Positions 61-62,011 are shown, numbered from the whole stretch's first letter. The stretch: 62,011 nucleotides of DNA, filler included, from Kipferlia bialata (GCA_003568945.1; 6 parts of 6 records of this genome joined end to end with filler, not necessarily neighbours in it); one strand, 5' to 3'. Numbers and translations are program-made. Notes: generated by a model not told the origin, from the letters alone.

Positions 61-3000
61 TTGAGGGTGCAGCCATCAGCACTGTTGTGGCGCAGACCAC
101 ACCAGCAGTCCTCATCATATTCTTCCTGCTGTCACCAGATAGGTGTGTGACTATACATTTTATGCGGCTCGTGACTATGCGCATATTATGAGATACAGAG
201 AGGATGATCGTAACCCGTGTATATATCTATGTCCCGTGTATCTATCTATGTCTTTCTCACCCCCAGACCCGTGAGACTAGTGTTCAGGAGTAAAGGAATG
301 TAATTATTCATGTGTATATGATATGTATGAGTATATCTATATTATTACATCTAACATCTAGGCCCGTCAGACTAGTCTTCAGGAGCAAGGTTGACTTTAG
401 GTGCATGGGACGGTTCCTGGCGCTAGGTACATTGTATTTGTGTACTATAATAGGTATTTATAGATATATGTCGAGTAGTATGTATATAGTATTATACTCT
501 AGCAGTCTATTTAGGTGCATGGGACGGTTCCTGGCCCTAGGTACGCTGGAGAGATATCTATCTTATGTATATTTCTAACAAAGTATATGTCCGCGAGAAA
601 CGTGTTTCAACCTACGCCGTTGGCAATTATACACCTGTTGCAAATGGTTTCTTGCATTTATGACTGTCCATACACGTCTCACCCCAGGCTTCCCCCAGAT
701 GGGTCAACAGTCCTCCCAGGCCATACCCATCGTGGTTGGTATGTATAGATAATTATATATAGATATATATCCATACATTCGCGCATGCCTTCACACACAT
801 ATCCCAGGCCATACCCATCGTGGTTGGTACGTATAGATGGTTATATATATATATATATATACATACATTCACGCCTGCCTTCACACACATATGTCCCAGG
901 CCATCCAGATTGTGGTTGGTATGTTGAGTGATATATATGGTTGTATATATATATTGATACATGTAGCTGGTATGTGACATGTATATGTTAGCAACTACAT
1001 ATGCTACTAGGCCTAGTATTTTTTCAGATATGCCATCTATTCAATCTCACCCAGGTAACACCCTGATCAAGTACTATGCCGATGAGGCAGATGTCTATAT
1101 GTGTGTATATAGTGTATATCGTATAGTATATACTAAATTCCCACCCCAGGTAACACCTTGATCAAGTACTATGCCGATGATGCTGATGTCTATATATGTG
1201 TATATAGTATATATCATATAGTATATACAACATACCCACCCCAGGCAACACCTTGATCAAGTACTATGCCGATGAGGCTGATGTCGACAGATACATTGTG
1301 GTCTTCAGCGGGGTGCTCCAGCGGTACGCAATTACTCAGTCTCTCTACCTCTCTTCTTCTATTCTTCTATATCTCTTCTATAAATCACCTCAACATGTCT
1401 CAGTGTCAATTTACCTCACCCTAGCTAACTAGCTCTCCTCATCGCATACTATTCGGTCTCAGTGTATATACATTTATTACTTTTGCACATATACACCACA
1501 ATAGTATTATCACTAACCCCCCAGCTACCTCGCCCTGCTCATCCTCCCTATTATTGGTCTTACATTATATATATAGTATATGTAGTATTGCTATATATAT
1601 ATAATACTATATACCTCACCCCCAGCCATCTTGCTCTCCTCATCCTGCCCATCATCAACATATATGTTGATTCATATATATATATATATTCTATTATTCA
1701 CATATATAAGTGCAACTAACTAACCCTAGCTACCTCGCCCTCCTCATCCTCCCTATTATTGGTCTCAGTGCCGGGTACCTACCCGTATCCTCATACAACC
1801 TGGGGGCTAAGAAGTACCACAGGTTCCTAGAGGTATGCTATATTGACTAACAGTACATGATCTAGTGTGTATATGTTGAGTATATACAATGGTCACTCTA
1901 TCTCGCTGTCAAGAAGTACCACATTCCTAGTGGTAGTAGGCTTTCCTTTTGATCAGTATGTCATTCTCTCCAGCTACTTCTCTTAATTTGTATTGCATTG
2001 ACATCTATCTCTACACATACAGTATTACTCTGATTCCCCTACCCCTCAGAGCATTCACTGGGGACTGGTATTCGCCCTCCTACAAGTACTTATCCCTATA
2101 TATATTGTCTTGGCTATCATCCAGCTCTGCACATGGCATTCTGATACATATTATTCTATTCTGATACACATCTCCATCTCTGCACATAGCATTCTGATAC
2201 CCAGAGCATTGGGTGGGGCCTCTTCTTCGCCTTACTTATGGCTGGTGTGGGGTGGCTGGGCACATACCTAGTGCCTGACATGATTGTGTCCATACTGGGT
2301 GGGAACGACGAGGAGCTGCAGGACTTAGGGGTCTATGTGCTCAGGTGGGTGGTGGATTGATATATGATGTGCTATCATATTTATAGGAAAAGGGTATTAC
2401 CCCATGATCTCTGTGTTTATGTTCTCAGGTTGGTTGTGTGTGTGTCATATGTATTTACTGGTGGAATAGAATACTCAAGGATACATTTATAACTCTGATG
2501 ACCCGTGATCTGTTACTGCAATACATACTCCATTTTGGTACCTGTTCCCACCCACATATGCTGACCCCCAGGCACTGGTGCTACATGTTCTTCTGCGTGT
2601 CCTTCCCATACATAGTGGCCACTACATTCCAGGTACCAGGGAAGAGGATTGCACTATAATCCTTTATATATATATATTGTGGCCACTGCATTCCAGGTAC
2701 CAGGGAGATTGTAAACACATATAGTATATATAGTAAAGTAGTCCATAGTAATTTGGGCTATATTCCTATTGAATACATATCATGGCAAAACGCATTCCAT
2801 ACTCACTCCCCCATCCGGTATACATACCCATTCATATATTCTTTGTCTCTCTGTGTATACTATCTCTCACCCAGGCCCAGCACTCCCCCATCCTACAAAT
2901 ATGTGTATTGATGCCTGTATTCATATAGCAGATATATATGTTTATGTATATATACTATATGTCCCCATGTATCTTCTCACCCAGGCCCAGCACTCTCCCA

Positions 3001-4233
3001 TCCTGGCAGCCGGGTGTTCCTTTGCCAGACAGGCTCTGTTCCTAGTCCCCCTGATGGTCATCATACCATTCTTCACAAGGTGGGTATATATGGATACACT
3101 TGTGTCTATATATATAGTATAATAACCAACTCCCAGGGATGTCAAGTCTCTCTTCATAGCGGGTGCCGTCTCAGACGCCTCCTCAGCCGTGGTATCATCC
3201 ATCCTCTTGTACCTGTTCATCATCATCCCATTGGTGCCAAAGCTCGAACAGGTATATTCGTGTATTACTACCTACCTTATGTTAGGATTACTATTCATCA
3301 TCATCTATTCCATTGGTGCCAAAGCTGGAGTAGGTACAGACTGGTATACTACTGCGTTTCACACACTACTTATGGTATGAGTATTAGTACTCCCTTACCC
3401 CTTAGGAGAGAGAGGCTGAGAGGCAGCGTTGCCTTGAGGAGGGCATTGAGGGCCAGAGCGTACTGTACAAGATGAACCCATGGGCTAGGTGTGTATAGAG
3501 TCAATACAGTGATACTACGAGTGAATGACATCTCTCCCTGTATCATTACCCCCCTCTCTCACCCCCTAGGGACAATGGCATGGGTGCCTCCAACCTGACC
3601 TTGGGCCTATCCACCTTCCTGTCCCTCTTCTACATCAGAAGGAAGACAAAGAAGAGGGGGGAGGGCGAGGGAGAGGAGGGGAGCGTGGGTAGCTCCAGTG
3701 AGGGTGACTCGGATATGGGGGCTGACGCATTCCAGGTGTATTGATGTATATATTATATACTATATACAGGGATGTAGATACCGGTACATAATATATGTAT
3801 ATGGGCAGACGCATTTAAGGTGTGTGTTGTGTGGACACCAATCATTGCCATATTCCTTGTCAGTGATGTCAGGTGAGTAACTGTTTGAATCGTATATATT
3901 GGGTGTCTTATGCCTCTTCTGACCCCTAGGTCCTGGCCTCCGCTGGAACTATATATGAATATATGTATATCTATATATATTAACATGTGTACTTGTCCCT
4001 AGTATGTGGACACCTATCCCATTTCATGCTGTAACTTATGTAATCTGAGTGACCATTCTAACCCCTAGGTCCTGGCCTCCCCTGGTGTTGCCATGGAGAC
4101 ACAGATAGACACAACAGACACGATGGATATCATTGACACGATGGATATCATTGAGACAGAGTGTGTGGCAGAGAGAGAGAGAGAGAGAGAGCCCTCTCTG
4201 AGTGAGAGTGCATCCCATAGGGCGGATGCCTAG
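61..4233 (+). CDS. MATE family multidrug/toxin extrusion transporter (MepA/NorM-like), 5' partial, about 12 exons
   Basis: Spliced in frame: (E)GAAISTVVAQ...|RPVRLVFRSKVDFRCMGRFLALG|FPQMGQQSSQAIPIVVG|NTLIKYYADEADVDRYIVVFSGVLQR|YLALLILPIIGLSAGYLPVSSYNLGAKKYHRFLE|SIGWGLFFALLM...|...RQALFLVPLMVIIP. The GAAxxT and YNLGAKKY motifs are typical of MATE. Stop TAG at 4231-4233. Confidence 0.9.
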
Positions 4234-5388
4234 TTAGTATAGAGTCTTAGATCTAATCAGATAGTAGAGCGTTGCTGAGCAACTGTCGCAGTGTATTGAT
4301 CCTATCCACTGCACTAGCCAAGTTGTAGCACCTCGAGTGTGTGTATTCTATTGTTAATAGACCAGTGTGTTACTTGAGTTGGTGGTATGCTTCAACATAC
4401 ATAGGGCTTCTCAGCACTCCTTTGCTACTGCAAAGCCCTCCCTATCTAATACATAGTAAATATACAGAGTATATATAATACATATTTTAATACATCTATG
4501 GTATACACAGTAGTACTCCTTCGCTGTGTCGGTAGTACCGCAGGGGGTGATGACACACTGCTCCTCTCGACATCTACTGTCTCCCACTCCCTATCCCACC
4601 TGGGGTTCTGGTCCAACGGTCGGACTCCGATCATTCCCTCTCCTCTACACTTTCCTTCACTGCCAGAGCTGGTGTACGCCTCTGTCTAATTCTATATCTT
4701 CTATGTCTTCTTAATCTTACTACATAAGACTCTGGCCTCTCTATCGAATCGATAGTATATAGTATCGATAGTCGGTACCACTAACTGATACTGATACTGA
4801 TACACTAGTTCCTAGACTAGGACCTATATACGACCCTGTCTAATTCGGATCGACTTGACCCACAAAGAATCATTATGACATAGAGTCTTCAATAATGACT
4901 ATTTTTAGTGATTCATAGTATACTTCCATGCAGCCACCGTCTCTGCACCCCATTGGAGAGAGACCTTCGGAAGAGGTCACCTCTTTGAGGTCTCTGGAGA
5001 CTGCGGGGTTGAGGGGTATATGTATGTGACACAAATTCTGTGCGAGGGGTACATGTGTTGTCTCGAAGGAGTCCTTTAAGGACACCACGCTGGGAACAGA
5101 GATCGAGAGCGAGACAGAGAGGCAACAGGACCCCGGGAGAGTCAGGCCCTGACTCAGAGGGCGATGGATGGAGACTCAGAGAGAGCTTGTGGCAGACACC
5201 TCTGGTGAGACGGAGTGGTAATGGGTGGGGCTTGGTTCAAGCCTAGGCAGTGTACTATTATAGTAACTATATTAGTATATAGTAACTATATTAGTATAGA
5301 GAGAGACCACATACATATACGTAGGTAGGGGGAACATATATATTACATTATCTATTTATCTCTTCTGGCGTTCAAGGGCAAGGTAGAT

Positions 5389-5836
5389 CTAGTATCCTGT
5401 TGGAGGCCTCCTGACCGTCTCTAGGCATGAGTCCAGTGTATCCTGGCAGACATCCAGACCCTCTACGGCGCTCTCTAGGCTAGACACAAGAGCGCACATG
5501 GTCTCATTGCACCCTTTTAAGTCGTCCACGGTCTCCTCCATCTCTGTGCACACAGCCTCCAACAGCCGGGTGTTCTCTTCTATCCCTACCTGGGATAAAG
5601 GTAATGGTAAAAGAGTGCTGGTAGCTTGGATATATGAGGTTGGAGATTAGGGTACTGAGAGAGAGGGGGGAGGGGGAAAGTCTGTCCTCAATGGTAGCGC
5701 TGGGAATTGTGGTGTAGAGGGGTTAAGAGAGACATATATGATACCTCATGGCTCGATATTCTGTCACACAAAAGAGAAAACAACACCATTACGCCCTGTC
5801 TCTGTTGCACAGAGTCTGTGCCCTGTCCATGCTGAG

Positions 5837-6889: not shown

Positions 6890-9800
6890 CTACACCAGCA
6901 TCTTCATCTCGCTGATGACATCTGACACGAGGTCAGCTGTCTCACGGGAGAGAGAGGCAAGGCCGGACTGGGGGTGAGGACACAGAGAGAAATATAGCAT
7001 ACATGTATTTATATATATGTATTACACACTGCCTACCTCTGTGCCTAGTCTGTGTCCCTCTGAGGCATCAGCCTTGTACACAACGGCACACCTGGGGTGA
7101 ACGAGAGAGAGAGAGACAGAGAGGGGGGAAAGTACATACCAACTTCCATGTACATAAATGTGTATATACTAATGAACACTACCCACCTCGTCCTTGGCTG
7201 CAGGGGGTGTCCCACTGGGTCTGCTGAGTAGTCAACCCCAGATGCTGACACCACCCTGATGGGTCTGGCAGAGGTATGGGCACCCTTGGCGATGTATCGC
7301 TCCTGGGGGGTGAGGGGTGGGATATATATATATATTTGCATGTACATTCCATACTAATATGGGAGAAGATAGTAGATAAATGGTTGGACAATATGAATGT
7401 ATGCATATACTGAATACATACTTGTCTCCCTACCTGCATCAGCGTGGCCTGGTTTGTGTTGCCTGCGTCTGTCACCACTATGCCCTGTACAGTGGGTACA
7501 GGCCTGCCATTGACACGCACGCTGGTGCTGGGGGGTGAGACACATGTACAGGGGAGTATTATGGTATCAGTAAATGAATATATACCTGTCAGTCTCTGGC
7601 ACTGTGAGGGCAGGGCTAGAGTATAAATGTATATATACACATATGATATACACATACACATTTAAATGTATATACCCACCTGTCTGTCTCTGGCACTGTG
7701 AGAGCAGGGCTAGGGGGCAGGGGCAGTGCCACACGGTAGGAGGGACCCTGGGAGGGGTAGTCCTTGGGCCTGGGGTCAGAGAGGGCATATGTAGAATATA
7801 TGTATCTGTTATACAGTATAGTATACATATAAACCCTACCTGAGCACTGGGTATGCACAGCAAGGTGGCATCTCCCCCAGCCTAGCAGCATACTCATCCA
7901 TGGGGGACACACCCTCTCCCTCTCCCTCTGCATCTGGTGTGCATGGGGCAGTGCCATCGGGCTGGATGTGCAGAGAGACCTGGGGGTTAATATTAATTAT
8001 ATATATACACACATACATATACTTGATAGATAGATGCTATCATCTGGCTGGATGTGCAGAGAGACCTTGAGTAAAAAATATTATTCATATACATATATAC
8101 ATAATGTATATACATATACTTGAGGGTTATATGGATCATCGGGCTGGATGTGCAGAGAGACCTGGGGGTTACAATAATTATACATATACTATATAGTATA
8201 TATTCATATATAATGTACTTGAGAGTTATATGCATCATCTGGCTGGATGTGGAGAGAGACCTGGGGGTTAATTATATATGTATACTATATAGGTTAATTA
8301 TATATATATACTATATAGTATATATATATATATGCAGTATACATATACTTGATAGATAGAAGCATCATCGGGCTTGATGTGCAGGGAGACCTGGGGGTTA
8401 CTACTATTATACATATACCATATACCATATACTATATATATAGGTATCCATACATATACTTGATAGGTAGACATGCCATCTGGCTATATGTGCAGAGGGA
8501 CCTGGGAGGGGAGCATATACAAATATTGTAACATACGTACACTCACATATAGATACTAATAATAATACATATACACGTCATATGCACCCACCTTAGCATC
8601 GTAGAGCAGTCCACACATGTCTGCCAGGTGGAGTATGGTGACCACAGATACAGAGGATGCCTCGACCTCAGTGGCAGAGGGGTGGGGGGAGAGGGTCGGG
8701 ATGTCCTGGGGTGAGACTGCATAGCTAGAGCTAGAGTTGAAGGGGAGATATAGAGGGGATACAAAGTATATATATACTTATGTATATATACATACATATA
8801 TATATACAATATACTCATATAGAGAGGACGAAGGGGGGAGGGGGGGGGGGAGAAGGAGGAACTTATATGTATATACACAAATATCCCTATACCTTGTACC
8901 CCTGTATGTCCCTAGGGCATGTCACCTCCATACATATATATATCCATATATATATAAACACATATATATACTATACACATATAGACACACAGAACATACC
9001 TTGTATCCCTGTATGTCCCTAGGGCATGTCACCTCCATACATACATATATCCATATACATATATACTCATATATCTATACTATACATATATACCCACTAT
9101 CCCCCATACCTTGTACCCCTGTATGTCCCTGGGGCATGTCACCTCCTTCCTCAGAGTCACGGTCTGCACTAGGCCAACGGCATCAGAGGCTGCGGTGAGG
9201 GACTATAGAGAACTATACATATATAGTGTATATATATATATAGTGTACAATGTACCCAACAGGGCCAACGGCATCATAGCCTGGGGTGAGGGACTATGCA
9301 TAACCATACATAATGAAACACTGATTAACCAGAAGAATGAATGCATAACAATATAATCTTGGAAATCTATACATAGTGTATCCCACCTGTCTTCCCCCCC
9401 CTGAGTGCTGCCGTGTCACACTGTACCTGGGCCTGCCACACATGCCTGGAGGGTGATGGTACAGTGTATGGATATACGTATACACCATAGATATACACAT
9501 TCTAATAAGACTTGGTCTGGTGGTCTGAGTCAATATACATATCCATATATATATATACTACATATACACTCCATACCTAGTCTGTGTCTCCTGGTATCTG
9601 CCTGACAATATATAGATATCTATCTATCTATACATACACATACCTGGTCTGTGTCTCCTGGTATCTGTCTGACAGCAGAGTGTCACAGTGCTGGGGGGTC
9701 ACACCGGACATGAACCTGGGGGGTCAGTCATATATACCACTTGGTATACTATATATACTATACATACTATATACACTTTATATACACTGTATATATCAGT

Positions 9801-11032
9801 GCTGAGGGGNTACTATACATACTATATACACTTTATATACACTGTATATATCAGTGCTGAGGGGTGACACCGGACATGAACCTAAGATTAGTCATGTATA
9901 TACACCATTTAAGCACCATATATATATATATATTCATGGCCTATATATACAATATCTACATATACAATGGGGGTGACACCGGACATGAACCTGGGGGGTC
10001 AGGGATGTATACTGATATACATAATACTTACTATATTTACTATGAATACTGTATATATATTACTGATTTATTATACAGGTGAGGGTAGTCCTTATCTATA
10101 TCCATTTGCCCTCATATACAACTATATAATAATCCAATAACTATGTACTAATATGCTATACCTGTGAGATTAGGCCTTCTCTAGATCAGTGATGTATACC
10201 ACTTACTATATATACTATATACCCTACACACTATCTATACCTGTGTGAGTAGTCCTTCTTCTCCAGCCCTGATGCAAGGTCACCCAGGGACAGGGAGTCA
10301 ACCTCAAGGGCCTGGGGGGTGAGATATCATACATCACACACACACACACACACATATGTATTTGTATTAATAACATTATACATATATATATATGTATATA
10401 CACATATATATATGTATATATCAACCTCAAGGGCCTGGGGGGTGAGGGGTGAGGAGGGGACGATGTATATATATTATGTCATACTTCTACACATCTAGGG
10501 CCATACCTCTATGCCCTTCCTCCTCATGGGTGGGTACATGCACCTACAATATATATATTCATATATAGACATACATACCTCTATGCCCTTCCTCCTCATG
10601 GGTGGGTACATGCACCTACAATACATATATATATATTTATACACACACACCCATACCTCTATCCCCTTCCTCCTCATTGGCGGGTACAGGCTCCTGCCCA
10701 GCTCCACTGTCACTCTGACCCTGCCTAGGAGGGAGAGGTCGGACGAGGAGGCGTCGGAACACGAGATGAACCTAGAGTAAGAGGTAATAGAATTAGTAAG
10801 ACAACGTATATCAGAGGAGGAGATATCGGTTCAGGAAATACACCTAGAGTAAGAATGTGCATATCCAGAGAGACGGAGAGTGATATGTATCAATCCATAT
10901 ACATACAAATACACATATCCATGCATACCTCTGCACCACTGCTGTGAGGCTCTTGTGCAGCAGAGAGTGCCACAGCGAGTGGCTACCCACATGGCTAGAC
11001 ATGGACAGAACGGCAAAGCGACGGTCGATGTG
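6890..11032 (-). CDS. hypothetical protein, about 13 exons, 5' truncated by the scaffold end
   Basis: Phase-consistent GT-AG chain: HIDRRFAVLSMSSH...|FISCSDASSSDLSLLGRVRVTVELGRSLYPPMRRKGIE|ALEVDSLSLG...|...|SGLASLSRETADLVSDVISEMKMLV*. No family recognised. Confidence 0.75.
7955..8507 (-). repeat. six-unit acceptor-side echo array
   Basis: CATC(G/T)GGCTGGATGTGCAGAGAGACCTGGGGG-like units (plus strand) at ~7955 (real exon start), 8041, 8137, 8236, 8367 and 8477. Confidence 0.9.
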
Positions 11033-18471: not shown

Positions 18472-18791
18472 CTATTGTGTGTCCTCGAGAACCACCTTAG
18501 CGGCCCTAGCAACTGCGTCGCCGGCCCCTGCCTTACCGGCCTCCCCTGCCTCCCAGAGAGACACGAGGAGGAGGAGGGCCTACAGTTAGGGACCAGTTCC
18601 CAAGATAGAGACACACACATACCCATACACACTAATAGATAACGCAATGCTCACCTTGGTTGGTAGGGCTGTGACCCTGCGGAGTGCCCCCAGGAGCAGA
18701 ACGGCATCGACAGCACACAGCCGGAGCGACTGCATGTTAGGAACACTCCCATAGACACTCCCACATCACGACAGCTACCCCTGATACCTAT

Positions 18792-18828
<37 letters not shown>

Positions 18829-21800
18829 CCTGTACGACCATGAGCGCCGCGTCCTGTCGCAAGGGCAGTAACAGCTGTGCGAGGTCTGCGTCAGGCGAGG
18901 AGTAGCATAGCTTAGTGCGGGTGGATGTAACTGGTGCGATGAAGGTTGCCCCCCCCATCCCCACCCCTCCCCCCTTGGGCCCCAGGTGGATGTCGGCCAG
19001 GTACAGGTGTCTGACGGAGTGGAGCGTGGGCACCATGGCGTCTGTCCCCATATCCACACACCGTGTCAGCCGTTCCACTAGGACGGTGTCAGTGGCAAGA
19101 AGGGAGGCATAGATGCTAGACGTGTCTCGGTTGCCTATACGCCGACTCTGCTGTGAGAACCCTGTAAATCTCACAGATAGCATAGGATAGTGTGGAATGC
19201 ATCACTCATCTACATTGATAGATCTGAAATGCGCATATCCATATGCACCCCCCCACCTGGTTATCTTGGCACATGCCGTGCATACACTGGATGGCTAGGC
19301 GGGACAGGGCCAGGTGCGAGGCTAGGGGGTGGAGCGGTACTGGCAGGTGGGCCAGACCCGTGCGCGTGTGGCCGACCCAGCCCCTATTCGGTCCCACCCC
19401 TTCCCTGAGGGGCCCAGCTGAGGACAGGACGGCCTGGACCCTTTGGGAGAGGGGTAGAGGGGGGCAGGGCACGCTGAGTCGGGAGGGTGCCCCAGAGCCA
19501 TGGGGTGGATAGCCAGGGGGGTGGAAAGGCGGGACGGCAGGGGCGGTCTCCCCATCCCCATCACCCTGGCCTGGTTTGCAGTCTAGGTACGCACGCTGGG
19601 CATACAGAGAGTCTGGGGCACACTGAGAGAGGACAGAGCGTAACCCAGAAATCATATCCTGCGAGTGAGAAAATGCATCCATCCAAGTTTATACACCTAT
19701 GTACCCACATGCGGACGGGTGCCCATCTGCAACGCTTGGAGGTTACGGGTAGAGGTCAGCAGCTGGGCCAGTAGATACACTCTAGGAAGGGAGAAAGGGG
19801 GCGCCAGTAGAGACTTCAAGACCACTCCTTAGGGTGAAGGGGCTATTGGGACGGTGTAGTGGAAAGAGTGTAGGTGAAACAGGGTCAATCGGGCAAGATA
19901 ACACATACAGACCCACGTGACCCATCCCCCACTACTACTCACCTGGGTCGATAGGGAGGGAGTCGAGGTGGATGGGGGCAGGGGCCAGGGGGATGAGGGC
20001 GAGGACGGCCTCTTCACCCAGAGAGGGGGGGAGGGAGTGGGGGAGGGAGGGGGGGAAGACGGAGCACGGGGTGCGCTGCTGCAGGATGGCAGGGTGGGAT
20101 ATACCAGACGCCAGGGAGAACAGAACCCCGATTAGGGAGGTATCCTTCACTAACAGTGAGGGTGGGTCATCATCGTAATAAGAGGGGTGGGTTGAGACTG
20201 CAGTGACTACCCGCTATACATACACTACCCGCACATGGTCACCCACCTACTGCTGCCTGGGTGGCGGTGCCGAGTGCCCCAGCCACTCTGACCACTCTTA
20301 GCAGTGTGTCCCCCACCCACCGGTGCCTGTCTGCTGTGGGCACAGGGGGGACGGGGGGGACGGAGAGGGGAGGGGCGTCCGAGGCATCGGCCACCCAGGA
20401 CACGGCCTCCTTGAGGAGAGCCACGCCAAGGGAGCCCAGCCCAGCTGTACCCGTCAACCCATCCGCTGAAGGTAAGGTAAGGTAAGGTAAGGTACGGTAC
20501 GGTAAGGTAAGGTAAGGTAAGGTTAGGTTTGGTGGGTAGAAGATGTGTCCAATGAGGGAGGAGGCAGGCAATGGTACATATACGTGATATACACACGGTA
20601 TATATACACATCACGGTATACACACATATGGCACCTGGTAGATGGGGACCAACGGCTGGGACTGGCGCAATGGGAGGAATTGTGGCAAACTTGCTAGCAC
20701 CCTTTGGTCTCCGCCCTGGACCCTTTCTGCATTGAGTAGAGATGACTGATGAGATACACACCAGCCAATGGGCAACTACCACCCCGCTGCCCCTCACCTG
20801 ATGGTGACGTCCACACTGTCTGGCAGCACATCCCTCCGGAGGGTGGAGGGGTGGGCACGGGCGGCACCCCCGGCCAACCAGGCCTCGACCCTGTCTAGCG
20901 CAGAGGTCACGTCGGCCTGGGGTGGGCGAGACACTCTCTAGATACACAGGGCTAATGTAGCTATAACACACACTCCCACATATGGAATATATATATATAG
21001 ATATCATACCTGTCCCCTCAGGCTGCCACAGGCCACTGCCGTCTGACACTGGTCCATCACTGTCCTCAGCTGGGAGGGCGCAAGGACATCACGGGTCTGG
21101 CGTGAGACGAGAATGGTATACATCCAACACCCGCTGTCCGTTTCATTGATATCTGATGTACTGATATCTGTTATCTGCCATGCCCCCACCTGGGCTGCCT
21201 CCTCACTCAGTACATGGGTGGGCACGGGGGTGGCACGGTGGTCGTTGAAAGGGGCCGTGGATGCAAGTTCACGGATGGCCTAGGATAGTTAGGGGGAACA
21301 GTCATAGTAATAGTAATAGTATATACATATATATATCAATATATACCCATACGCAACAGATACACTCCACGACTGACTCTAGCACTGCTTCCAGAGTTTT
21401 CTGCCGCACCTGTGCCTCCGAGGGGTCGGAGGGGGTGTCTGAGGTCCAGTCCCTTGGGTACTTGAGCCACACCATCCTGACATACCGGATCTGGGGTGGG
21501 ACCAATGATAGTGGCTGAATAGTACACCAGCAGGACACTTAAACAGTATTGAGACTTCGCTCTGAATCTGACGCATACCCTTCCCCACACATCCATGTCA
21601 CCCACCCACCTGCTCCTGCGAGGCCCTTTGGCTGAAGAGGGCCTGCTGCTCGAAGAGAAACAGGGTCTTCTCGTAGCAGATGCGGATCAGCTGGCCTTGG
21701 GTCAGATATGCTGGATGCATACTCAGAATACACACACACAGATAGATGAATACCAGCGCCCTCTCACCTGGGCAGTGCTCGGGATGACTGTACCGCAGCT

Positions 21801-40210: not shown

Positions 40211-40248
<38 letters not shown>

Positions 40249-40939: not shown

Positions 40940-41599
40940 GAGATAAGAAAACACTGCATACCACTACAATGATATCAATTCTGAACCACTAGTTAAACAA
41001 TGAATCTCTTGTAATAATACAACATAGTAAAATACTACATAATTTACTACAATACCGCAGTCACGGTGCCTTGAGACAAGTTAGAGTCACAAAACCACAC
41101 AGTTCTATCAATCACAGCCCTAATACACACGCTACACCGTGTATCCTACATCTGGCTAAGTCGGTTCAGTCATCGGAAGAGGCAGGCTCGTATTATTGGT
41201 ATTAGCAACCATAATACTAATGTATACATACACATAGACTGTTACTTAACACTATGATGCTGTCATACATATTAATATATATATATTAAATGTAATATAA
41301 TACTATAGTAACAATTATTGTGTGTAATATAGTACACACATGTATATCACATATGTATATACCTCCTGGGCTGTGTGTGCATATATATATAAATTCATAT
41401 ATATATGTATGGGTGTGTACGTTTATCATATATGTATATGTATATATCTCCTGGGCTGTGTGTGCACATGTCCTTGAGACATACACATATGTATGTATAT
41501 ATATATATATATGTATACATTTAGTAATACATATAGTATGGTATACCTCCTGGGCACTAGTATATAGTATATAGTACACACATGCATATCATATATATA

Positions 41600-42332
41600 C
41601 CTCCTGGGCTGTGTGTGCACATGGCCCTGAGAGCACTGGTGTCCACAGTGAGCATGTAGGACCTGGGGTAGGTATATATATCTCTCTCTCTCTATATATA
41701 TATGGGTAGGTATGTAAATACACACACGACACTGGGTACTATATGCACCCAAACATATATATATTGATATTGATTTAGGAATACTAGTGTCCGCATGTAG
41801 GACCTGGGGTAGGTATATATGAATACCCATAAAAGACATACATATAGAAATATACGTTATACAAACATTTGATAACTGTTGTCAGAGTATAAGTTCTGGA
41901 GAAGGTACATGTACACACAAACCAAAATAGCTATGAATAGGAGTAATATACAGGATGATACTATTATATACAAGGAGATAGCTACCTGTATGTGTCCTGT
42001 CATAAGGAGAAGGAATATATGTACATACACACACTAACACACATATATGAGAAGAAGTAAGAGTAATGAGGATTCTTCTCCCCAAAAGTAACCTGTGGGT
42101 GTCACTTCCCTCGTCATAAGGAAGGGGTATATATGTACTAATATATATATATATAGTATCAGTATAGTATATAGTATATAGTATATAATAGTAGTACATA
42201 TGGTATATATAGTATAGTTAAATATAGTATATCTACCTGGGCGTGTCCTGTCCCCGATCACAGGAAGAGGTATATACATATATATATATATATGTGTATA
42301 GTATAAGTATATATAATAATGGTAGTATATAT

Positions 42333-42363
<31 letters not shown>

Positions 42364-43879
42364 GTATATATAGTATATCTACCTGTGCGTGTCCTTTCCC
42401 CCATCGTAAGGGAACGTGAGGTTGGCGAGAACCACATACTCATCTGAGGTGAGGGGAGATGGCATACATATACATTAGTATATATATATACATAGTATAT
42501 ACAGGTATCATACCCTCCTTGACCAGATGACCACATACTCATCTGAGGTGAGGGAGAACGTATACATATACAGGTACATATGTAATCATATACACAAATG
42601 AGAGTATATACATAATATTTGGCTACACTCTACATACACGCATGTATAGATACTTATCAAGTATCCTATAGTATGTATACACAGACGAAAACACACCCTT
42701 TTCGGCGAGTCAACACATATATGCCTACATCCACACATATACACGTATCATGCCCTACTTGACAGGGCAGCATGCAGAACTATAACTATACATATACCAA
42801 TGTATATTACATGACTACAAATATATTGCATATACACCATGAAAGAGTGAAGAGAGAGAGAGGTAAGAGAGAAGAGAGAAGAGAGAGAGAGAGAGACCAG
42901 CCAGCATGCTCAGGAAGTACATTGTATGTAATTATATACATACTCACTATAATATATATAATATATACTATATACTATATAATATCTTATATACTATATA
43001 ATATATATAATATATACTATATCCATAATACATACCCCCCTGGACATGGCAGCATGCATAGTGGCTGAACCCGTCGTGTTCATCGTGGTAGTCCTGAGTG
43101 AGAGGACATCTATAATAGTATATATATAATTGTGTAATAGTACAATAGCATATACATATATGTATGTACAATGGCATTATAGTATATATATATATATATA
43201 ATAGCATATCACACCCATCGTCGTAGTCCTGAGTGAGACTATATCTATAATAGTATATATATACAATGGTATAATAGCATATATGTATAATGGTATATAT
43301 GTATAATGGTATAATAGTACATACATACATGTATCGCCGTAGTCCTGAGTGAGAGGACATCTATAATAGTATATATATAACTGTGTAATGGTACAATAGT
43401 ATATACATATATGTATGTATAATGGTATAATAGTATATATATAATAGTGTATTACACCCGTCGTCGTAGTCCTGGGTGAGGGGACATCTATAATATGTAT
43501 ATATATATATATATAAATTATATAGAATAGTATATCATATATGTATCCACACATAATGAATATATACATTGTCGTAATCCTAAGTGAGAAGACATCTATA
43601 GTAGTAAATCTATATATATATAATGGTATATATGTATAATAGTATATATGTATAATGGTATAATAGTATATACATATTAGTAGTGTAAAACAACCATACA
43701 AATGTGTATATCTGTTCACATCGTTGCACACACACCTCGCCATGTGAAGAGACAGGTAATATCAGGTACATATACACATATATGTGTATACATACATACC
43801 GCGTCCTCCGAGCCAGGCGGCTTGAGTACAATAGTATATACATATATGTATGTATATACTATTGTACAGATCTAATGGA

Positions 43880-43921
<42 letters not shown>

Positions 43922-44458
43922 ATAATAGTATACATACATACCTCGTCCTCCTCGTCCTCCGAGCCAGGCAGCTTGACAACGGGACCCCAGAGGTTTCTGA
44001 CGGATGAGGAGACACTAATACTAAATGTACATTGTATATATAGAGAATTTTGTAGAATGTACACGTTGAATATATAGTTGTCAGAGTCTGGAATAGCGCA
44101 TTAATGAAGGATGAGGGGACTTCTTTGGTAGCAGACACGAGACATGGCAAGTTTACCAGGTTGTTTCATGTAGAATTTCAAAGAAATCTATAAATATTAT
44201 ATATACATACATACACCATACTATAATAAATAGACTGTCAGTAAGTGCATGCCAATGCACACATATATACGTATATATGTGTATCTGACCGTGTCCACGG
44301 GCTGATCTAGATATATATCTAGATATATATCTACATATACATATCTATATATCTATATAGTGCATACATCTATATGCATATTCCATGTATTACCTGACCG
44401 TGTCCACTGGCTGTATGCCCCTGGGCCCAAAGACCAGGGCCATGTTGTCGGGCAGGGC
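41600..44458 (-). CDS. kelch-like repeat exons, phase-compatible with the downstream YaaA exon (possible fusion); 5' truncated
   Basis: ALPDNMALVFGPRGIQPVDTVR|NLWGPVVKLPGSEDEEDE|DYHDEHDGFSHYACCHVQG|DEYVVLANLTFPYDGGKDTHR|SYMLTVDTSALRAMCTHSPG, ending at a phase-1 donor. Confidence 0.6.
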
Positions 44459-44573
44459 CTGTCATTAGTACATATGTATATATATACATACACATATATA
44501 TGAGGTACAACGGTAATAGAGAATGAGAGAGAATGCCCAAACACCAGGGCCATGTTGTCAGGCAGGGCCTAGG

Positions 44574-46871: not shown

Positions 46872-49270
46872 ATGGGCTTATTCTCCTTCCTCTCACGGAC
46901 GGGTGAAAACCCTGGTCCTTTCGAGGGGCTCTCTGCTGACTCTTCAGGTGGGTTTGTAGACGGTCAGTTATATACTCAAGCTTACAACCAGCCATCCTGA
47001 GTACCCCCTTTTCGGATGGAGTGAGTGTCACTGCGTCGAAGACCTTCAGCAAGAACTTCCAGGTGAGTTCCAGTTATTGGCTGTGTTGGGCCTGTCTCAC
47101 CCTAGATCATGCACTCCTTTGGAATGGGTCAGGGCACCAACTACAACATGACTGCTCTGTATGCCGGGGACAGGTCTATGCTGCAGGTGGGCTATGGAGG
47201 CACTGCTAGTGATGAGAGGGATGAGTTCTCCGAGTAACCCAATGATATTGTAATCACCCCAGGGCTCTGTGGACAATGGGGGCAATGTGTCTGGCCGGGT
47301 GAACGTAGTGCCAACAGAGCACGTATCTCTCAAGGTGGGTGCCTCCGTGCGGAGATATGTGTATGAGTATGAATGGTATGTGTGTGAATGGTGTATGTGA
47401 CACCACTATATGGGACATCGGTGCCACCTGTGACTTGTACTCATATACCTCACTCATATATATCATTTATCATATACATCATATGTCATATGCCTCATGT
47501 CAGGCAGCGTTTGAGATGGATGCAGCCTCTGGCGGTCTTAACCTGAGGGGAGACGTCGACTTGGCAGGTGGGTGGCTGTGGCTTCTGTATATGTATGTGT
47601 TTGTTTTCGTATATATGTATGTTAGTGTCTAGTCTCCAATAGGTGTGTGCCTATGACCCCTGATAGAATGATCATCATTCGATGATGTCCCTGACCCCAG
47701 GTGCTGACTTCAACCTCAACTCCATGTACAGCACACAGGGAGACCTCGTCAGTGTCGGATATCTCCAGGTGATTCATATAGTGTGTGGTCTCTCCTGTTA
47801 TCCCTCACATCTGTGTCCCAGTTCATATATATATATGTATATACATATCCTGATGTTTACTGTGTCCCCCTTCTTGCTCTCTCTCTGTAGTATCTGTACA
47901 GTGTGCACATGTGTGACCCCACCCCAGAATGTGACGTCCTCTGTCGCAGTGGGGGGAGAGGGGCTCTACATCGGGGCCAAGAGAATGTCTCTCCTTGCCC
48001 TCGGGGCCAGGTACTCCTAGGCATCTCTCCCACCCTCCACGTCATATTATGTATTATATATTATAGACATTATATATTATAGACTATATATATTGTGTTG
48101 AGTGTGTTGTGTTATGTATATTCCAGTCCTGTCTATGTGTATCACCATCCGTCGTCCCCTGTACCACTAGATGTGTATCCTCATGCCCCATGTGCTTATA
48201 CCCCAGGCACAGCACCCCGGTCACCTCTGCCTCGGTCACAGTCAACTCCCAGAGGACGGTGAGGGCAGATGTGTATATGTGTGATTGGATAGTGTGTGTG
48301 TAGTCTATATAGTCTCTCTCTCTCGCATGGCTGGTGTGAGTGTGAATCCTGTATATATATATGAATCCTATATATATATATATATATATATCCCTGTTTG
48401 TGGCATTCCTGTGACTATATGCACCTCACCCCTCACTGATACTGATACATACCCCATTTATCCTCAGGGTGCCGTGGCCCTAGCCGCTGCGGTCTCTGCC
48501 AACTCCCGTGCCGCTGTCAAGCTGAGTGTGGACTCCCGGTCATGGCAGACAGACGCGGTGGCAGGTGGGGGTGGGATGGGATATTCCCAATTGAACACTC
48601 AGTCTCTCCCCCTCTCCTTCCCACTCCCTCTGATGCATATATGTGTGTATGTATATATAGTGTACAGCATCTGATCTGTACATGCCGTGTGTCTGACTCC
48701 CAGGGATCCAGGTCAACTACCCCAGGGCAGTGGTCAAGGCGACCCTCGGCACCAAGGGCAGGGTGTCCACCACCGTCAAGGCACGCAGATATCATGTGCA
48801 TCATGTATATCATGTATATCATGTATATCATATAGTGACATAGAGAGGAAGGGGGGTATGGGTATCTGGGTGTGTATGTTTATATGGACGGTTTCACATG
48901 CCCTACTTGTGTATATATTCACCTTTCTCTTCCCTCTATACCCTCATCTCAGCACGTGCTATCCCCGGGGGTTGCCGTTGAGATTATGGGAGGGGGTGAT
49001 TGGAAGAAGGGACAAGCCAGGTATATATCATGTGGATTTGATTGTACACACACACACACATATATATATATATATGTTCGTAGACTTGTGTTGTGAATTC
49101 TGTCTCTACCGGTGTTGATACTGTGATATGTATTTGGTATTGTGTCATCCGTGTATATATACGTATGTCTTTGTACTCTCTATGTGTCCTATCATATCAT
49201 ATGATATGTATCGTATGGCTGGGTCCCTCACCTCAGGTGTGGGGTGGGTGTGAGACTCTCCTCTGTCTGA
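46872..49270 (+). CDS. TOM40: Tom40, mitochondrial/MRO outer-membrane translocase beta-barrel (about 13 exons)
   Basis: ENPGPFEGL...GVSVTASKTFSKNFQ|IMHSFGMG..YNMTALY..MLQ|GSVDNGGNVSGRV...VGYLQ|NVTSSVAVGGEGLY... with a C-terminal beta-signal RCGVGVRL. Confidence 0.88.
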
Positions 49271-55936: not shown

Positions 55937-56038
55937 ACCTTGGCCCTCTGGTTCTCTGGCAGGTGGCTGACAGCCATATATACTGTATATACATTATATA
56001 CTATCTATATATATACATACTCATATACATATGTGTAC

Positions 56039-58370
56039 CTTGGCCCTCTGGGTCTCTGGCAGGTGGCTGACAGCCCTGGGTACTAGGTACTTGGGGACAA
56101 TCCTCTGACAATTAGTGAATAACATACATACTATATATATACACAGTAATGTATGTGAGTGTATATTTATAGCCCTGGAAACAAGGTACTTGGGCGCAAT
56201 GCGCTAAGTATTAGAACGTTATTGACATTCAGAGCAAATATATATACAGAGCATGGAAGTGAGTCACTCACTAGTGAGTGTATATATCTATATGCAAAGC
56301 CCTGCGTATATGGTACTTGGGCACAATGCGCCGACAATTCTGGAAATGTGTAGAAACTGTATATATATATAGTATATGAATATGTCATATGCAGTAGAGT
56401 TAATGGAGACAGACCACATGTGTGTACTTGTTACCTGGCGAGAAAGGACTGAGAACCCCCAAACACTCGCTGTTGCAACAGCCCAGCACAAAATGTTAGT
56501 ACCAACAAGTCTGACATAAGGGTGTAGAGGAAGAGAGAGAGAGAGAGGGGGGTCCCAACCGCGTACAGAATCCCACAGCGCTAGACACTCGAATCTAGAC
56601 TTACCCAGCGGAAGGTTCACAGTGAAGTATGAGCTAAATACACCTGGAATACTACAGATAGAGTATAAATGACGTAACGATTATCTGATGTCCCAGTGAA
56701 GGTCGTAGGTGGGTGACTTTCAAGAGTAGAAATATGCAAAAAGCACTCGACATCTATAGAAATACTGCTAAACATGAGTCATGTTTAAAACATGACTTAC
56801 TTAATGTCCCAGCCACAGTCAGCGGAATCATCGACAAAGAGGATGAGGAGGGCGTAGAAGAGCACCATCAGGAGATACATGCCTGGGGGTAAAAGAGACG
56901 TAATGCATACGATAGTTATAGTTACTATATACATATACATGTGAGTGTATACTATATAAATTGAAGACGACGAGGGCGTAGAAGAGCACCATCAGGAGAT
57001 ACATGCCTGGAGATATACTCAATAACATATATATACAATATAGTGCGATCAGCAGGGACAGGAAGTCAGCCTTTAGCTCTGCCGTCCTGAACCTCACTAT
57101 ATACAGTGTATGTATAGTACATNNNNNNNNNNNNNNNNNNNNNNNNNNNNNNNNNNNNNNNNNNNNNNNNNNNNNNNNNNNNNNNNNNNNNNNNNNNNNN
57201 NNNNNNNNNNNNNNNNNNNNNNNNNNNNNNNNNNNNNNNNNNNNNNNNNNNNNNNNNNNNNNNNNNNNNNNNNNNNNNNNNNNNNNNNNNNNNNNNNNNN
57301 NNNNNNNNNNNNNNNNNNNNNNNNNNNNNNNNNNNNNNNNNNNNNNNNNNNNNNNNNNNNNNNNNNNNNNNNNNNNNNNNNNNNNNNNNNNNNNNNNNNN
57401 NNNNNNNNNNNNNNNNNNNNNNNNNNNNNNNNNNNNNNNNNNNNNNNNNNNNNNNNNNNNNNNNNNNNNNNNNNNNNNNNNNNNNNNNNNNNNNNNNNNN
57501 NNNNNNNNNNNNNNNNNNNNNNNNNNNNNNNNNNNNNNNNNNNNNNNNNNNNNNNNNNNNNNNNNNNNNNNNNNNNNNNNNNNNNNNNNNNNNNNNNNNN
57601 NNNNNNNNNNNNNNNNNNNNNNNNNNNNNNNNNNNNNNNNNNNNNNNNNNNNNNNNNNNNNNNNNNNNNNNNNNNNNNNNNNNNNNNNNNNNNNNNNNNN
57701 NNNNNNNNNNNNNNNNNNNNNNNNNNNNNNNNNNNNNNNNNNNNNNNNNNNNNNNNNNNNNNNNNNNNNNNNNNNNNNNNNNNNNNNNNNNNNNNNNNNN
57801 NNNNNNNNNNNNNNNNNNNNNNNNNNNNNNNNNNNNNNNNNNNNNNNNNNNNNNNNNNNNNNNNNNNNNNNNNNNNNNNNNNNNNNNNNNNNNNNNNNNN
57901 NNNNNNNNNNNNNNNNNNNNNNNNNNNNNNNNNNNNNNNNNNNNNNNNNNNNNNNNNNNNNNNNNNNNNNNNNNNNNNNNNNNNNNNNNNNNNNNNNNNN
58001 NNNNNNNNNNNNNNNNNNTATACATAGTATATATAGTATATATATATAATATATACCTTAGCTTCAATGCCTCATAATGATGCCTTGAGCATCATGTACT
58101 ATAAATATACATATCAATACTCTGTATATATAAAGTATATGTACCTTTGCCTCTATGCCCCTGAGAGATGCCTTGAGCATCATGTTCTTGGTGCCCTAGA
58201 GAACGTATAAATTAATGTATATAGTGTATATATACTATATATACACTATATATATAGTATAATACCTTAGCCTCAATACCCCTTAATGATGTCTTGAGCA
58301 TCATGTTCTTGGTGCCCTTGGCAATGAACACGACACACACCAGGATGGGGTACACATACCCAAGGCCAGC
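56039..58370 (-). CDS. multi-pass membrane hypothetical protein (spans the N gap 57123-58018; both ends uncertain)
   Basis: AGLGYVYPILVCVVFIAKGTKNMMLKTSLRGIEAK|...|MYLLMVLFYALLILFVDDSADCGWDI|...|LVGTNILCWAVATASVWGFSVLSRQ|RIVPKYLVPRAVSHLPETQRAK. Confidence 0.6.
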
Positions 58371-59116
58371 CTAGCGTGTGAGAGATGGACGAAAGAGAAA
58401 GAATTGGGGAATGGAGGGATGGTCATCATACACAACCTGTGTGTGATACACAAGACATCGCAATAGACCACATATATAATTATGAAATTATAGCCACTAA
58501 GGGGTCAGAGGACTCAATAGTGCCTGGTAGAGATACAGAGACAGAGCGATATCTTCCCGTGACAAGGGAATATGGAAACCGTATACGGTCCCAGAAGTCT
58601 TCACTGATTGCAGGGCATTTGCCCCAACAGGGCAGGGGTAGTGTAGAGTCTACACTGTAGACTACACTGTAGTTCTACTACTAGTGACCCTCACCTCGAA
58701 GATACTCATATTTGGGTTTACTTCAGGTACTGTGCCAACGCTAGAGAGCCACACCGACCAGAAAGTGTGACGATGTCCACCCTTATGGTGTGAGTCTTCA
58801 AAAACGTAGGTTTGTGTCGGACTTTCGAAGAATGAACCGGATTTTGCCAGCCCTGAACATTGAATTGTGTTGGACATTTGAAATGTCAGTTTTCACTCGT
58901 TATCTGGTCTCTTCCTTCTGAAGTTCAGAATCTGAACTGGACATCGGGGGCCACTCTAGGATATAACTTATATCATATAAGTTATATCATATAACAATTG
59001 CCTGATTACACTATTCTATAATGACCATAGTCACAATAGTCTGACCACACTCAAAATGAGATATATCTGAGTCTGCTTTACTACATCATGTACCTAATAC
59101 TGGCTGAGTACACAGT

Positions 59117-60550
59117 CTATTCGTCCAGATCCATCTCCTCTCCCTCTCCCTCTGGCTCAGAGACTGAGACAGCAGTATCTCTCGCAGATACAGACATACT
59201 CTCTCTCTCCCTCTCCCTCTCTCTCTCTCTATCTGTACCAGACATGCTCAGAGAGAGAGATGCAGAGATGTCTCTGTCCCTCTGCCTCTGCCTCTGCCTC
59301 TCTCTCTCGGCCTCCCGCAGCTCCTCGGCTTCTCTCTCCCTCTCTGCCGTGACCTCTCTCTCCATGTCTCTCTCTCTCGCCTCTCTCTCCTTCCGGGCCA
59401 TCTCTCTCTCCCTCTCGCGCTCGGCTCCTGGAGTGAGATAGTATAGAAAATTGAACCCAAAACATCAGTCCCTCATACATACAGCTGCAATATATATAGT
59501 GTATACATATACTTAATACTATTATATGTATACTTGTATATATTTCTGTATACACCCACCTGCCATAGTTATGGGTCTGCCCTCTATTGTCTTGGACACA
59601 TACACAATGCTAAATGATACACACTGTATATAGTGTATATAGTGTATATAGTTGTATATACATATGTTTATCCACCTGCCATTGTGATTGGTTTGCCCTC
59701 TATTGTCTTGGACACATTGAGCAGGTGGTAGAGAAGGGGGCTAGGGGTTAGCGAGAGAGTATTATACATATATAGGTATACAACACAGATACATATATAT
59801 AGAGTGTCTTGGACACATTGAGCAGGTGGTACAGAAGGGGACTAGATGGTTAGAGAGAGATAACATGCATGGAAATGTGTATCATATACATACATAAATA
59901 TACACATATATGTGTAAATATATATAGTGGCTTGGACACAATGAACACAAGGGACTGGGGGTAAGATATCCACGGATAGTAACACATGTACACATAGACG
60001 ATTACAACTATGCTATAAAAATATAGTATACATATAAACATATTTTCACATCTCACCCTGCATCTTGTCATGGGGCACCCCTACCTATACATGAAGTATA
60101 CCTATGATATATATGATATACATACATATATATATGATACATATGTATATATACACTCACATCTCATCCTGCATCTTGTCATGGGGCACCCCTACCTACA
60201 CACAGAGTATACCTATGATATTATTATATGATATATATATATATATATATATATATGAACATATACTCACATCTCATCCTGCATCTTGTCATGGGGCACC
60301 CCGGCCTCTCGGCACAGGAACTGCCTGGGGTTAGATGCCATATATAGAGAGATATACAGTGTACAGACTATCTATTATCCCCGAATGACTAATTATGTAT
60401 ATACCTCCCCAGTTCTCCATTCAGCACTTGGCAAAGTATATCCATATAAATATATATACATACAGTGTCTAGTATACATTACATACCTCCCCAGGTCCAC
60501 GTCTGGCAGCCCTGCCTCTCCATTGAGCCACTTGGCATTGTATATCCATC

Positions 60551-60589
<39 letters not shown>

Positions 60590-60707
60590 TGTCTAGTATA
60601 TATATTACACACCTTCCCAAGTCGACGTCTGGCAGCCCTGCCTCTCCGTTGAGGCACTTGGCAGTGGCGGCAAAGCCATGGAAGACTAGAGTAAGGTGGT
60701 AGGGGGG

Positions 60708-60741
<34 letters not shown>

Positions 60742-61549
60742 GAGAGAGACGGTAGACACCTCTGCCACACTGGTCAATAAATTATATATAAATTATATAT
60801 AACACATAAATTATATAAAATATATACATGTATGGGTGCATAAGAATGTCACACACAAATTCCATACAATTCAGACACATATGCTATGCACTTATATGCG
60901 ATCATATCATACCTAGGAACTCTCTGATGAGTGATGCCAGCACCCATGAGTCACCAGACAGGGAGGGGTATATACACTGTATATATAAATACTATACGCA
61001 TATATATTATATATACTAATACCTAGGAACTCTCTGATGAGTGATGCATGAGTCACCGGACAGGGAGGGGTATATACACTGTGTATATATATATACAATA
61101 TGCATGTATATTATATACACTACTATAGTACCTAGGAACTCTCTTATGAGTGATGCCAGGACCCACGAGTCACCAGACAGGGAGGTGGTGGGCTTGGGGA
61201 GCTGGTATTGGTAACTGCATATATATACATATATATATATATTACTATGGGGGGGAGAGGGAGAGAAGAAGAGAATGCCCTGGGAGGTGGTGGGCTTGGG
61301 GAGCTGGGTTAGTGACAGAGATTATAGTATATATATTAGATGTATGGATTATAATCATGATGGTAGGGGGGGGGGGAGAGAGAGGCATGTTGGAAAATTG
61401 GGGATTGTGGGAAGGGGGGGGGGGTAGAGATAATCCACAGGAAATTAGGATTGCACATACCGATCCTTCGAATGCCTTGACCACTGCTGCTCTGACATCG
61501 GTCTCTATCCGCTCATACTCCCCACTGGACTTCATGTCACGGAGCACAG
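59117..61549 (-). CDS. FOPNL: FOR20/FOPNL (CEP20) LisH-domain basal-body protein with an ER-rich tail, 5' partial
   Basis: VLRDMKSSGEYERIETDVRAAVVKAFEGS|LPKPTTSLSGDSWVLASLIREFL|VFHGFAATAKCLNGEAGLPDVDLGR|QFLCREAG...|PLLYHLL matches the TOF, LisH and PLL motifs of FOP/FOR20. Confidence 0.85.
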
Positions 61550-61574
61550 CTGGAAGTAAGAAGTATATATATGC

Positions 61575-61613
<39 letters not shown>

Positions 61614-62011
61614 ATATATACAAATATAGGAATATATTTATAGGGAGAGACGTAGACTTCATGTCACGAAGACAGCTGGGGTTAGTAAATGGGTGAGTAT
61701 ATATATAGAGAGAGAGAGGAGGTATATACATATGGGGGGGGGGGGTCTTCATGTCCCGCAGGACAGCTGGGGTAAGAGTACATATGTACTAACAAATGCG
61801 TAAATAGAGGGGGGTGAGGGCTGGACTTCATATATGTCACGAAGGACAGCTGGAAGTAAGAAGATAATCAGGGGCAAAAGAGAGAGAGAGAGAGAGACAG
61901 AGATTCAGCGATAGGCTTAAAGTAAGCGAGAGTAGTTAGATAGCGAGAGACTACATGAGTGAAGGGGAAGTAGGAGGGGGGGGGGGGGGGTGTGGGAAAA
62001 AGAGACATGCA

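Follow-up and report, generated by a model that had tools for sequence, protein, structure and literature searches.

Repetition of an exon–intron boundary inside the neighbouring intron has been described before. For example, the so-called mirages of amphioxus are tandem copies of an exon–intron boundary lying within an intron of Adh3, the globin genes BflGb6 and BflGb9, troponin C and PGBD5; both 5′ and 3′ boundaries are involved, the units measure 10–160 bp and many carry AG or GT (PMC3087553, PMC3902484). Normal splicing is stated there to be unaffected and the origin of the copies to be unclear (PMC3087553). Another example is the 37-bp variable number tandem repeat (VNTR) in intron 7 of human F7, which places silent 5′ pseudo-sites after the authentic donor (PMC1557585). 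The window analysed here, that is, the whole 62,011-nucleotide (62 kb) stretch made of six scaffolds, joined by N-flanked spacers, of the free-living metamonad protist Kipferlia bialata, contains a comparable architecture, in which many exons are flanked by partial copies of their own ends (hereafter, echoes). These are single-junction copies of the mirage type. With a probability of roughly 0.47, we read them as likely displaced older alleles, the working edge and its echo having come from different chromosome copies that were once functional.

All counts given below are limited to the window. Since a self-trained gene finder inserted many echoes as micro-exons, exon chains curated by hand by the author were used instead; they comprise 124 complete exons and 107 adjacent introns, leave out gene M, the region 12400-18500 and the gene ends, and include chain O exon by exon. 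Once echoes were omitted, chains A (12 exons), B (13), C, F, G, H, J, K (16), N and Q and a control gene had no internal stops, and chain E had one junction out of frame. Each exon was aligned without gaps against its adjacent introns (score of at least 14), the expectation being taken from introns of other genes. This self-alignment, which the earlier note had proposed, returned 92 matches in the 107 introns against 1.1 expected by chance, and 44 of the introns (about 40%) contain at least one echo. Repeats of complex sequence confined to introns are almost nil (one match in 7644 nt, itself a short echo below threshold), so the enrichment at junctions is real, and the absence of enrichment that the same note had named as grounds for dropping the idea was not what was found. 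The loci on which the analysis leans are the following.

66..4232, + strand: MATE-like transporter gene (A), 12 modelled exons, stop-free without echoes, echoes in 8 of 11 introns
267-293, 510-540, 802-826, 894-918, 1055-1095, 1150-1197, 1525-1560, 1626-1655, 2050-2081, + strand: examples of echoes in gene A
1040..1323, + strand: two acceptor echoes (1055, 1150), then the complete exon 1245-1323
6896..11032, − strand: gene B, modelled with 13 exons, echoes in 7 of its 12 introns
7980..8520, − strand: array of five acceptor echoes in alternating variants, belonging to exon 7840-7979; window assembly only
18655..22203, − strand: control, 15-exon gene, none of 14 introns with an echo, one modelled junction out of frame
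22576..22934, + strand: intron with acceptor echoes 22740 and 22840 and, at 22642, a copy that lacks AG; skipped in an RNA contig
23025..23290, + strand: three donor echoes of exon 22935-23024; contigs break at microsatellites
23625..24181, + strand: four acceptor echoes (23640, 23757, 23876, 23993), alternating acceptor types, then the complete exon 24112-24181; contigs break
25288..25973, + strand: complete exon 25692-25804, preceded by acceptor echoes 25490 and 25600 and followed by donor echo 25848-25905; DNA contigs, RNA length
26867..27172, + strand: donor echoes 26922-26979 and 27022-27063 of exon 26672-26866; DNA contig
31590..32056, − strand: five donor echoes of exon 32057-32173; window assembly only
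36956..44568, − strand: YaaA-like gene (K), 16 modelled exons, echoes in 13 of 15 introns
46948..49270, + strand: control, 11-exon gene, 10 introns, no echo at score of at least 14, one weak anchored match
55939..61850, − strand: partial gene models O, P and Q, 16 echoes; in Q, echoes in 5 of 5 introns

The copies that the earlier note had placed at 1055 and 1150 before exon 1245, and at 23640 to 23993 before exon 24112, were recovered, as were two five-copy arrays, one of donor copies in 31590-32102 and one of acceptor copies in 7955-8507. Both donor copies after 26866 are present as well, although the first starts at 26922 and not at 26923; the second starts at 27022, and GT follows directly after 26979 and 27063, respectively. 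When terminal flanks are included, the search gives 103 matches, of which 44 are copies of exon starts lying upstream and 51 are copies of exon ends lying downstream. None in either class is reversed, so that the polarity claimed for every case stands (95:0). The other eight are mid-exon pieces, mostly parts of edge copies that indels or internal repeats break up, and a search anchored at the junction found 88 copies on the right side and 0 on the wrong one. Polarity was discarded as proof of a special mechanism: the complete exon always lies outside its copies because any copy of a single acceptor or donor forces that geometry.

The exon fragment of an echo measures 14-58 nt (median 28 nt for acceptors and 37 nt for donors) and no match spans both exon ends, so that mutually exclusive duplicated exons, in which the whole exon and both sites are copied, were rejected. 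The spacer has a median of 73 nt, i.e., the size of an intron, and the whole unit one of 105.5 nt (range 64-278), with 60 of 84 units inside the spacing of about 85-130 nt given previously. As had been proposed, the duplicated unit is one splice junction plus part of the intron, and introns grow in this way: echo units make up 9194 of the 26531 modelled intron bases (35%), the median intron being 152 nt after their removal and 129 nt among echo-free introns. A single copy is present at 38 of 60 edges and arrays reach 2-5 copies; within an intron, donor echoes always come before acceptor echoes, with no interleaving. No age gradient was detected along arrays (far echo more diverged in 10, less in 7, tie in 5). 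Short echoes are undercounted, because copies such as those of 43094-43600 (− strand), an array of tiny acceptor echoes with about 10 exon bases each, fall under the threshold. Eleven unrelated gene models carry echoes, which are strongly clustered by gene (13/15 and 5/5 introns versus 0/14, 0/10 and 0/10; 0 of 20000 permutations) and do not occur in every gene. As for the five scaffolds mentioned by the earlier note, strong echoes occur on four of the six (28, 27, 22 and 16) and the fifth has two weak anchored matches only.

Echoes are like amphioxus mirages in being boundary-spanning tandem copies within the adjacent intron (93 echoes at 60 edges in the codon set defined below), in affecting both boundaries, in often keeping AG or GT, and in leaving splicing undisturbed, here at three junctions. 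In contrast to the homogeneous minisatellite units with concerted evolution of the mirages, only 19/93 echo flanks and 18/51 within-array spacer pairs are homologous, and 38/60 edges hold one copy. They also differ in host, in density (44/107 introns), in a divergence structured by the genetic code and in a working junction that looks like a newcomer; the mirage passages contain no codon analysis. Echoes thus show four of five testable mirage features and represent the same known architecture, and the suggestion that they belong to no described intron class does not hold, amphioxus mirages and the F7 VNTR being already known. What is new is the protist case, the high density, with echo units forming 35% of the modelled intron sequence, the codon-structured divergence and the lack of intron-only duplications. 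The F7 VNTR is alike in that an authentic donor is followed by intact silent copies and the most upstream site wins, and unlike in concerning one locus, the donor side alone and near-identical units. Internal gene duplication and Rogers-type intron gain by tandem duplication share the short intragenic duplications with splice signals; that process turns a duplicated AG/GT into an additional intron, whereas here an existing junction is copied and the intron lengthens, no new intron having been shown. Literature searches in which the word "mirage" was not among the terms found no report of such copies in Kipferlia or protists, and the main text of the genome paper contains neither "duplicat" nor "tandem" (PMC5874029).

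The genome was assembled from short reads with SPAdes and has 124,912 GT-AG introns (PMC5874029). An assembler of this kind might have stacked alleles or strains in tandem, which would give synonymous differences too, and there is an exact 55-nt duplicate at a single N (9810). Contigs of two sequencing runs, X1 (DNA) and X2 (RNA, by the tool's guess), were compared over 22420-31500 at a likeness of at least 95%. X1 contigs join a working edge and its echo without mismatches in 25692-26279, 26773-27957, 28104-28496 and 28855-29153, at depths of 414-454 (414 for 26773-27957) against 437 for a long unique exon, and have no variant letters. They were assembled separately from the window, though X1 may be its own source of reads, and they break in the microsatellite-rich arrays 23031-23375 and 23663-24109, which rest on assembly alone. 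Since joins of exon to intron need novel 31-mers, the tandem must be real where contigs cross it, and an assembly artefact is very improbable as a general explanation.

At each of the three testable junctions echoes stay unspliced and the spliceosome skips intact-looking sites, as the earlier note had supposed. One X2 contig has a GT-AG joint from 22575 to 22935, passing over two intact echo acceptors; in a second, the unseen part measures 189 nt, exactly the length of the complete exon (189/189), against 281, 391 or 290 nt if echo sites were used. These junctions come from contigs of one run, in which minor use of a site is invisible. Exon fragments of echoes stay within 58 nt, and this holds as well for 18 edges whose exon measures at least 95 nt (p 1e-7 if breaks were uniform). 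Over 70 nt of the exon side, GC content is 58% at working sites and 41% at echoes. It is known that a truncated flanking exon disfavours a duplicated splice site, and that plants choose splice sites at AU/GC transitions. Judging from these sequence features, echoes are likely tolerated because the spliceosome picks the sites nearest to each other across a GC-rich exon, as in exon definition and in the scanning model of F7. Exon definition with exon-centric proximity has been tied to introns longer than about 250 nt, lower eukaryotes being described as short-intron genomes (PMC9225289). The likeness is that the sites nearest across the exon are chosen at the three RNA-tested junctions; the difference, that echo-free introns have a median of 129 nt here and that the K. 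bialata spliceosome is reduced (87/174 proteins).

Echo and exon also diverge in a manner structured by codons, a point absent from the earlier note. The codon set excludes the eight mid-exon matches, a low-complexity false match (gene B, 8856) and a frame-ambiguous echo at 34554, retains the single-exon models I, J0, O and P, and consists of 93 echoes at 60 edges (51 donor-side and 42 acceptor-side). Twelve echoes are identical to the exon. Among 237 distinct changes between echo and exon, 141 (59.5%) are synonymous, whereas 24% would be expected under neutrality and 39% if the echo decays and the exon changes silently only (p about 1e-10 with kappa near 1, as observed, and 1e-4 with kappa 8). 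For example, echo 23993 differs from its exon by four synonymous and no non-synonymous changes, donor echo 25848-25905 by eight and one, and donor echo 26922-26979 by seven and none. Divergence rises from 4.4% at zero-fold sites (85/1948) to 12.5% at two-fold (78/622) and 21.2% at four-fold sites (107/504); the four-fold/zero-fold ratio is 4.8 (3.4-7.0 by bootstrap over the 60 edges), and 5.8 when echoes are compared with each other. It becomes 5.4 without models I, J0, O and P, and is also 5.4 at the five echo-bearing exons with outside support. Two-fold third positions lean to transitions (26:15 versus 29:63 at four-fold, p=0.001), and changes at first positions of Leu and Arg codons are 10:3 synonymous. 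A base-composition bias was discarded as the cause, the pattern holding for each base, as was detection bias, by simulation with the detection filter.

This pattern bears directly on plain tandem duplication on one molecule with neutral decay afterwards, as assumed for mirages and as the accordion of the earlier note would have it. It would account for structure, polarity and unit size, and the 12 identical echoes, the 19 homologous flanks and the alternating two-copy units of some arrays, which are what unequal exchange would give, agree with it. Near-identical exon pieces sit, however, beside unrelated flanks, and the mostly synonymous differences are equally unfit for copying on one molecule. 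Copies born on the same molecule should reach a ratio of only about 2, because silent sites change in both lineages and the other sites in the echo alone; simulations gave means of 2.1-2.2, with maxima of 3.55 in 600 runs with the detection filter and 3.69 in 400 without, against the 4.8 observed. An accordion of this simple sort is thus improbable. The excess of about 0.16 substitutions per four-fold site must have arisen at a time when the two versions both served as working exons.

Alternatively, echoes could be old and kept by selection, as splicing decoys, regulators or occasionally translated pieces, holding frozen states while the exon drifts silently. Such selection would yield the synonymous bias both between echo and exon and among echoes, together with unrelated flanks and retained branch motifs. 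A further point in its favour is the presence of GT directly after the AG in 11/38 echo acceptors, to be set against 4/25 echo-bearing working exons that begin likewise; an AG|GT of this kind, used as an intermediate, is what defines recursive (ratchet) splice sites. The signal is in register in 85/93 echoes (AG in 38/42, GT in 47/51) and disappears at roughly the pace of change at zero-fold sites, stops and indels are present (4 stops among 81 codon states with changed residues), and these losses fit a short neutral decay, of about 4% so far. With no age gradient, whole genes free of echoes, and echoes skipped in RNA where tested, there is only a small chance that selection maintains them.

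The intron flanks of the echoes agree with the codon evidence. The flank is homologous to the working one in 19/93 echoes and unrelated in 74/93, and even among echoes at least 95% identical with an intact signal it is homologous in just 9/31. On the acceptor side, identity is about 0.92 in the exon, 0.59 immediately upstream of AG and 0.38 further out, against 0.42 and 0.30 for unrelated acceptors at the latter two positions. A branch-like motif, often unlike the working one, precedes 31/38 echo acceptors, 93/107 working acceptors and 58/626 other intronic YAG. The TA-step content is 0.46/0.55 in working flanks, 0.33/0.36 in the flanks of outermost echoes and 0.30/0.32 at echo-free sites; the working flank being TA-rich and the outermost echo flank ordinary, it is the working junction that looks like the newcomer. 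The intron-like size of the spacers (median 73 nt) might suggest complete mobile introns of the introner type with a long target duplication. This is extremely improbable, in that 0/51 donor spacers end in a branch motif plus YAG (background 4.8%), RGTR opens just 6/42 acceptor spacers (background 22%) and the best spacer matches between loci are CT or TA runs only; a complete GT-AG unit shared between loci, as in introner-like elements, was not found among them.

The simplest account is an exchange between diverged chromosomes that pair in their exons and not in their introns, and displacement of older alleles could proceed as follows. A break within about 60 nt of an exon edge would lead to one-ended invasion of the homologous chromosome, pairing being possible through the exon alone, since allelic introns would have drifted apart; if such events begin with exon homology, a dearth of intron-only repeats, as found here, is to be expected. 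Synthesis would then copy the edge of the donor exon, its splice signal and some 70 nt of intron, stopping in TA-rich DNA, and off-register rejoining by Pol theta-type joining would leave the old junction inside the intron. Unequal exchange between homologs might expand arrays to 2-5 copies, and echoes would decay neutrally, tolerated since short fragments running into AT-rich DNA would be ignored in splicing. The exchanging haplotypes would differ by about 0.16 per four-fold site. One-sided invasion or homolog-templated repair followed by joining of the second end would leave a partial tandem duplication with copies from different templates; the process is known from engineered breaks, whereas here the case is built on sequence and gene content only. 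The repair genes of K. bialata include four Dmc1 gene models and PolQ but neither Rad51A nor Ku70 (PMC8516963), and Dmc1 stabilises mismatched triplets (PMC6719624). This repair-gene content fits the mechanism, as circumstantial evidence. A broader proposal, which we put forward tentatively and at clearly less than even odds, is that K. bialata keeps swapping exon edges with highly diverged homologs through Dmc1-plus-Pol theta repair, and that its introns might be a fossil record of displaced alleles.

Several points weigh against allelic displacement. Neither a second haplotype nor another strain or paralog was seen, the contigs having no variant letters over 22420-31500 at a likeness of at least 95%; nor did either of two metagenome scans bring up a close relative. 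In these, gene H gave no match, and the ribosomal P2 gene, whose first exon (45985-46248) is 100% identical to a Kipferlia bialata protein, returned two distant loci (44-48% identity), which were not used. The TA-richness of spacers is not accounted for by a donor with ordinary introns. Gene models were made by the author, with outside support for five echo-bearing exons only, and RNA support consists of three junctions in contigs of one run whose RNA status was guessed by the tool. The ceiling of about 2 presumes equal mutation rates in exon and echo. The ratio is 1.6 in gene O and 2.6 in gene K, and flank-homologous echoes, for which about 2 was predicted, gave 4.4 versus 5.0 (four-fold difference p=0.14). 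Finally, the ratio is just 3.2 at the 38 single-echo edges, in the upper tail of simulations, and 6.5 at multi-echo edges, so the case for birth by exchange is weaker than that for array growth.

The bias of flank-homologous echoes and the contrast between single- and multi-echo edges speak for echoes born by slippage on one molecule, with the working edge and flank swapped later by allelic conversion or unequal exchange. The 18/51 homologous spacer pairs within arrays and the concerted evolution of amphioxus mirage clusters (PMC3087553) point the same way. Slippage should, however, leave complex duplications within introns, of which none was found in 7644 nt beyond one short echo, and 74/93 flanks are unrelated; such a birth is unlikely, though a close rival, and it differs in the birth step only, still requiring highly diverged recombining haplotypes. 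Donors could also be diverged paralogs or homeologs elsewhere in the genome, acting by ectopic conversion. Some echoes are very diverged and yet keep their amino acids (at 2050, 23/32 identical), and clustering by gene could follow gene families. There was no positive sign of close paralogs, though no whole-genome search was made and protein searches with a MATE-like exon and with the long exon of gene H returned nothing at all, the annotated protein included, and the eleven gene models affected are unrelated, which makes paralogous donors quite improbable.

If displaced alleles are indeed the source, hidden sex or hybridisation and extreme diversity could be read from one homozygous-looking genome, a general origin for mirages would be at hand, and a protist with short introns and a reduced spliceosome would be forced into an exon-type definition of splice sites. 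Mirages have so far come from marine invertebrates, very polymorphic ones. The codon-level clock separates time spent as a working exon from time spent as an echo, making the origin of mirages testable, and K. bialata offers thousands of likely cases among its 124,912 introns (PMC5874029). Echoes likewise amount to a natural, genome-wide assay of splice-site competition in a lineage whose parasitic relatives lost nearly all introns, and bear on population genetics and sex in fornicates. Automatic gene models and the intron count itself may be affected by echoes read as micro-exons.

Other observations concern the products of the genes. Two consecutive exons of gene K match YaaA (Pfam PF03883) at positions 80-109 and 111-130, and one exon of gene A matches MatE (E=0.0017), in both cases below the curated cut-offs; 6/7 pieces in one query set and 9/12 in another had no Pfam match. 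YaaA is mainly bacterial. If this peroxide-stress gene were laterally acquired, all of its at least 15 introns would be gains of the lineage. "YaaA" is absent from the main text of the fornicate oxygen-detoxification paper (PMC6934886). The product of the control gene at 46948-49270 resembles a porin or Tom40 by eye, with no Pfam match on three exons, and an ARID-like resemblance noticed in another model had no match either.

Some loci depart from the general pattern. In 34212-34694 (+ strand), three echoes lie upstream of the complete exon at 34642 and are each one base longer than it; they keep the frame of exon 33805-33860, with mutual differences silent by eye, and the complete exon meets a stop in that frame, possibly owing to a recent frameshift or a gene boundary. 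Donor echoes 58145-58197 (− strand) and 802-826 (+ strand) begin at AG and thus resemble small exons, the first of 51 nt in frame and the second of 19 nt out of frame; by their sequence, they are possible starting points for the birth of exons or introns. The near-exact 55-nt duplicate in 9756-9865, around the single N at 9810, is unlike the echoes and most likely a scaffolding overlap artefact. The region 12400-18500, of about 6 kb, is poor in TA runs and shows no evident echoes; a long open frame lies at 13591-14307. Finally, 52869-53112 is a repeat of ATATG/ATATGAT of about 240 nt, with a 2-N gap, lying within an intron.

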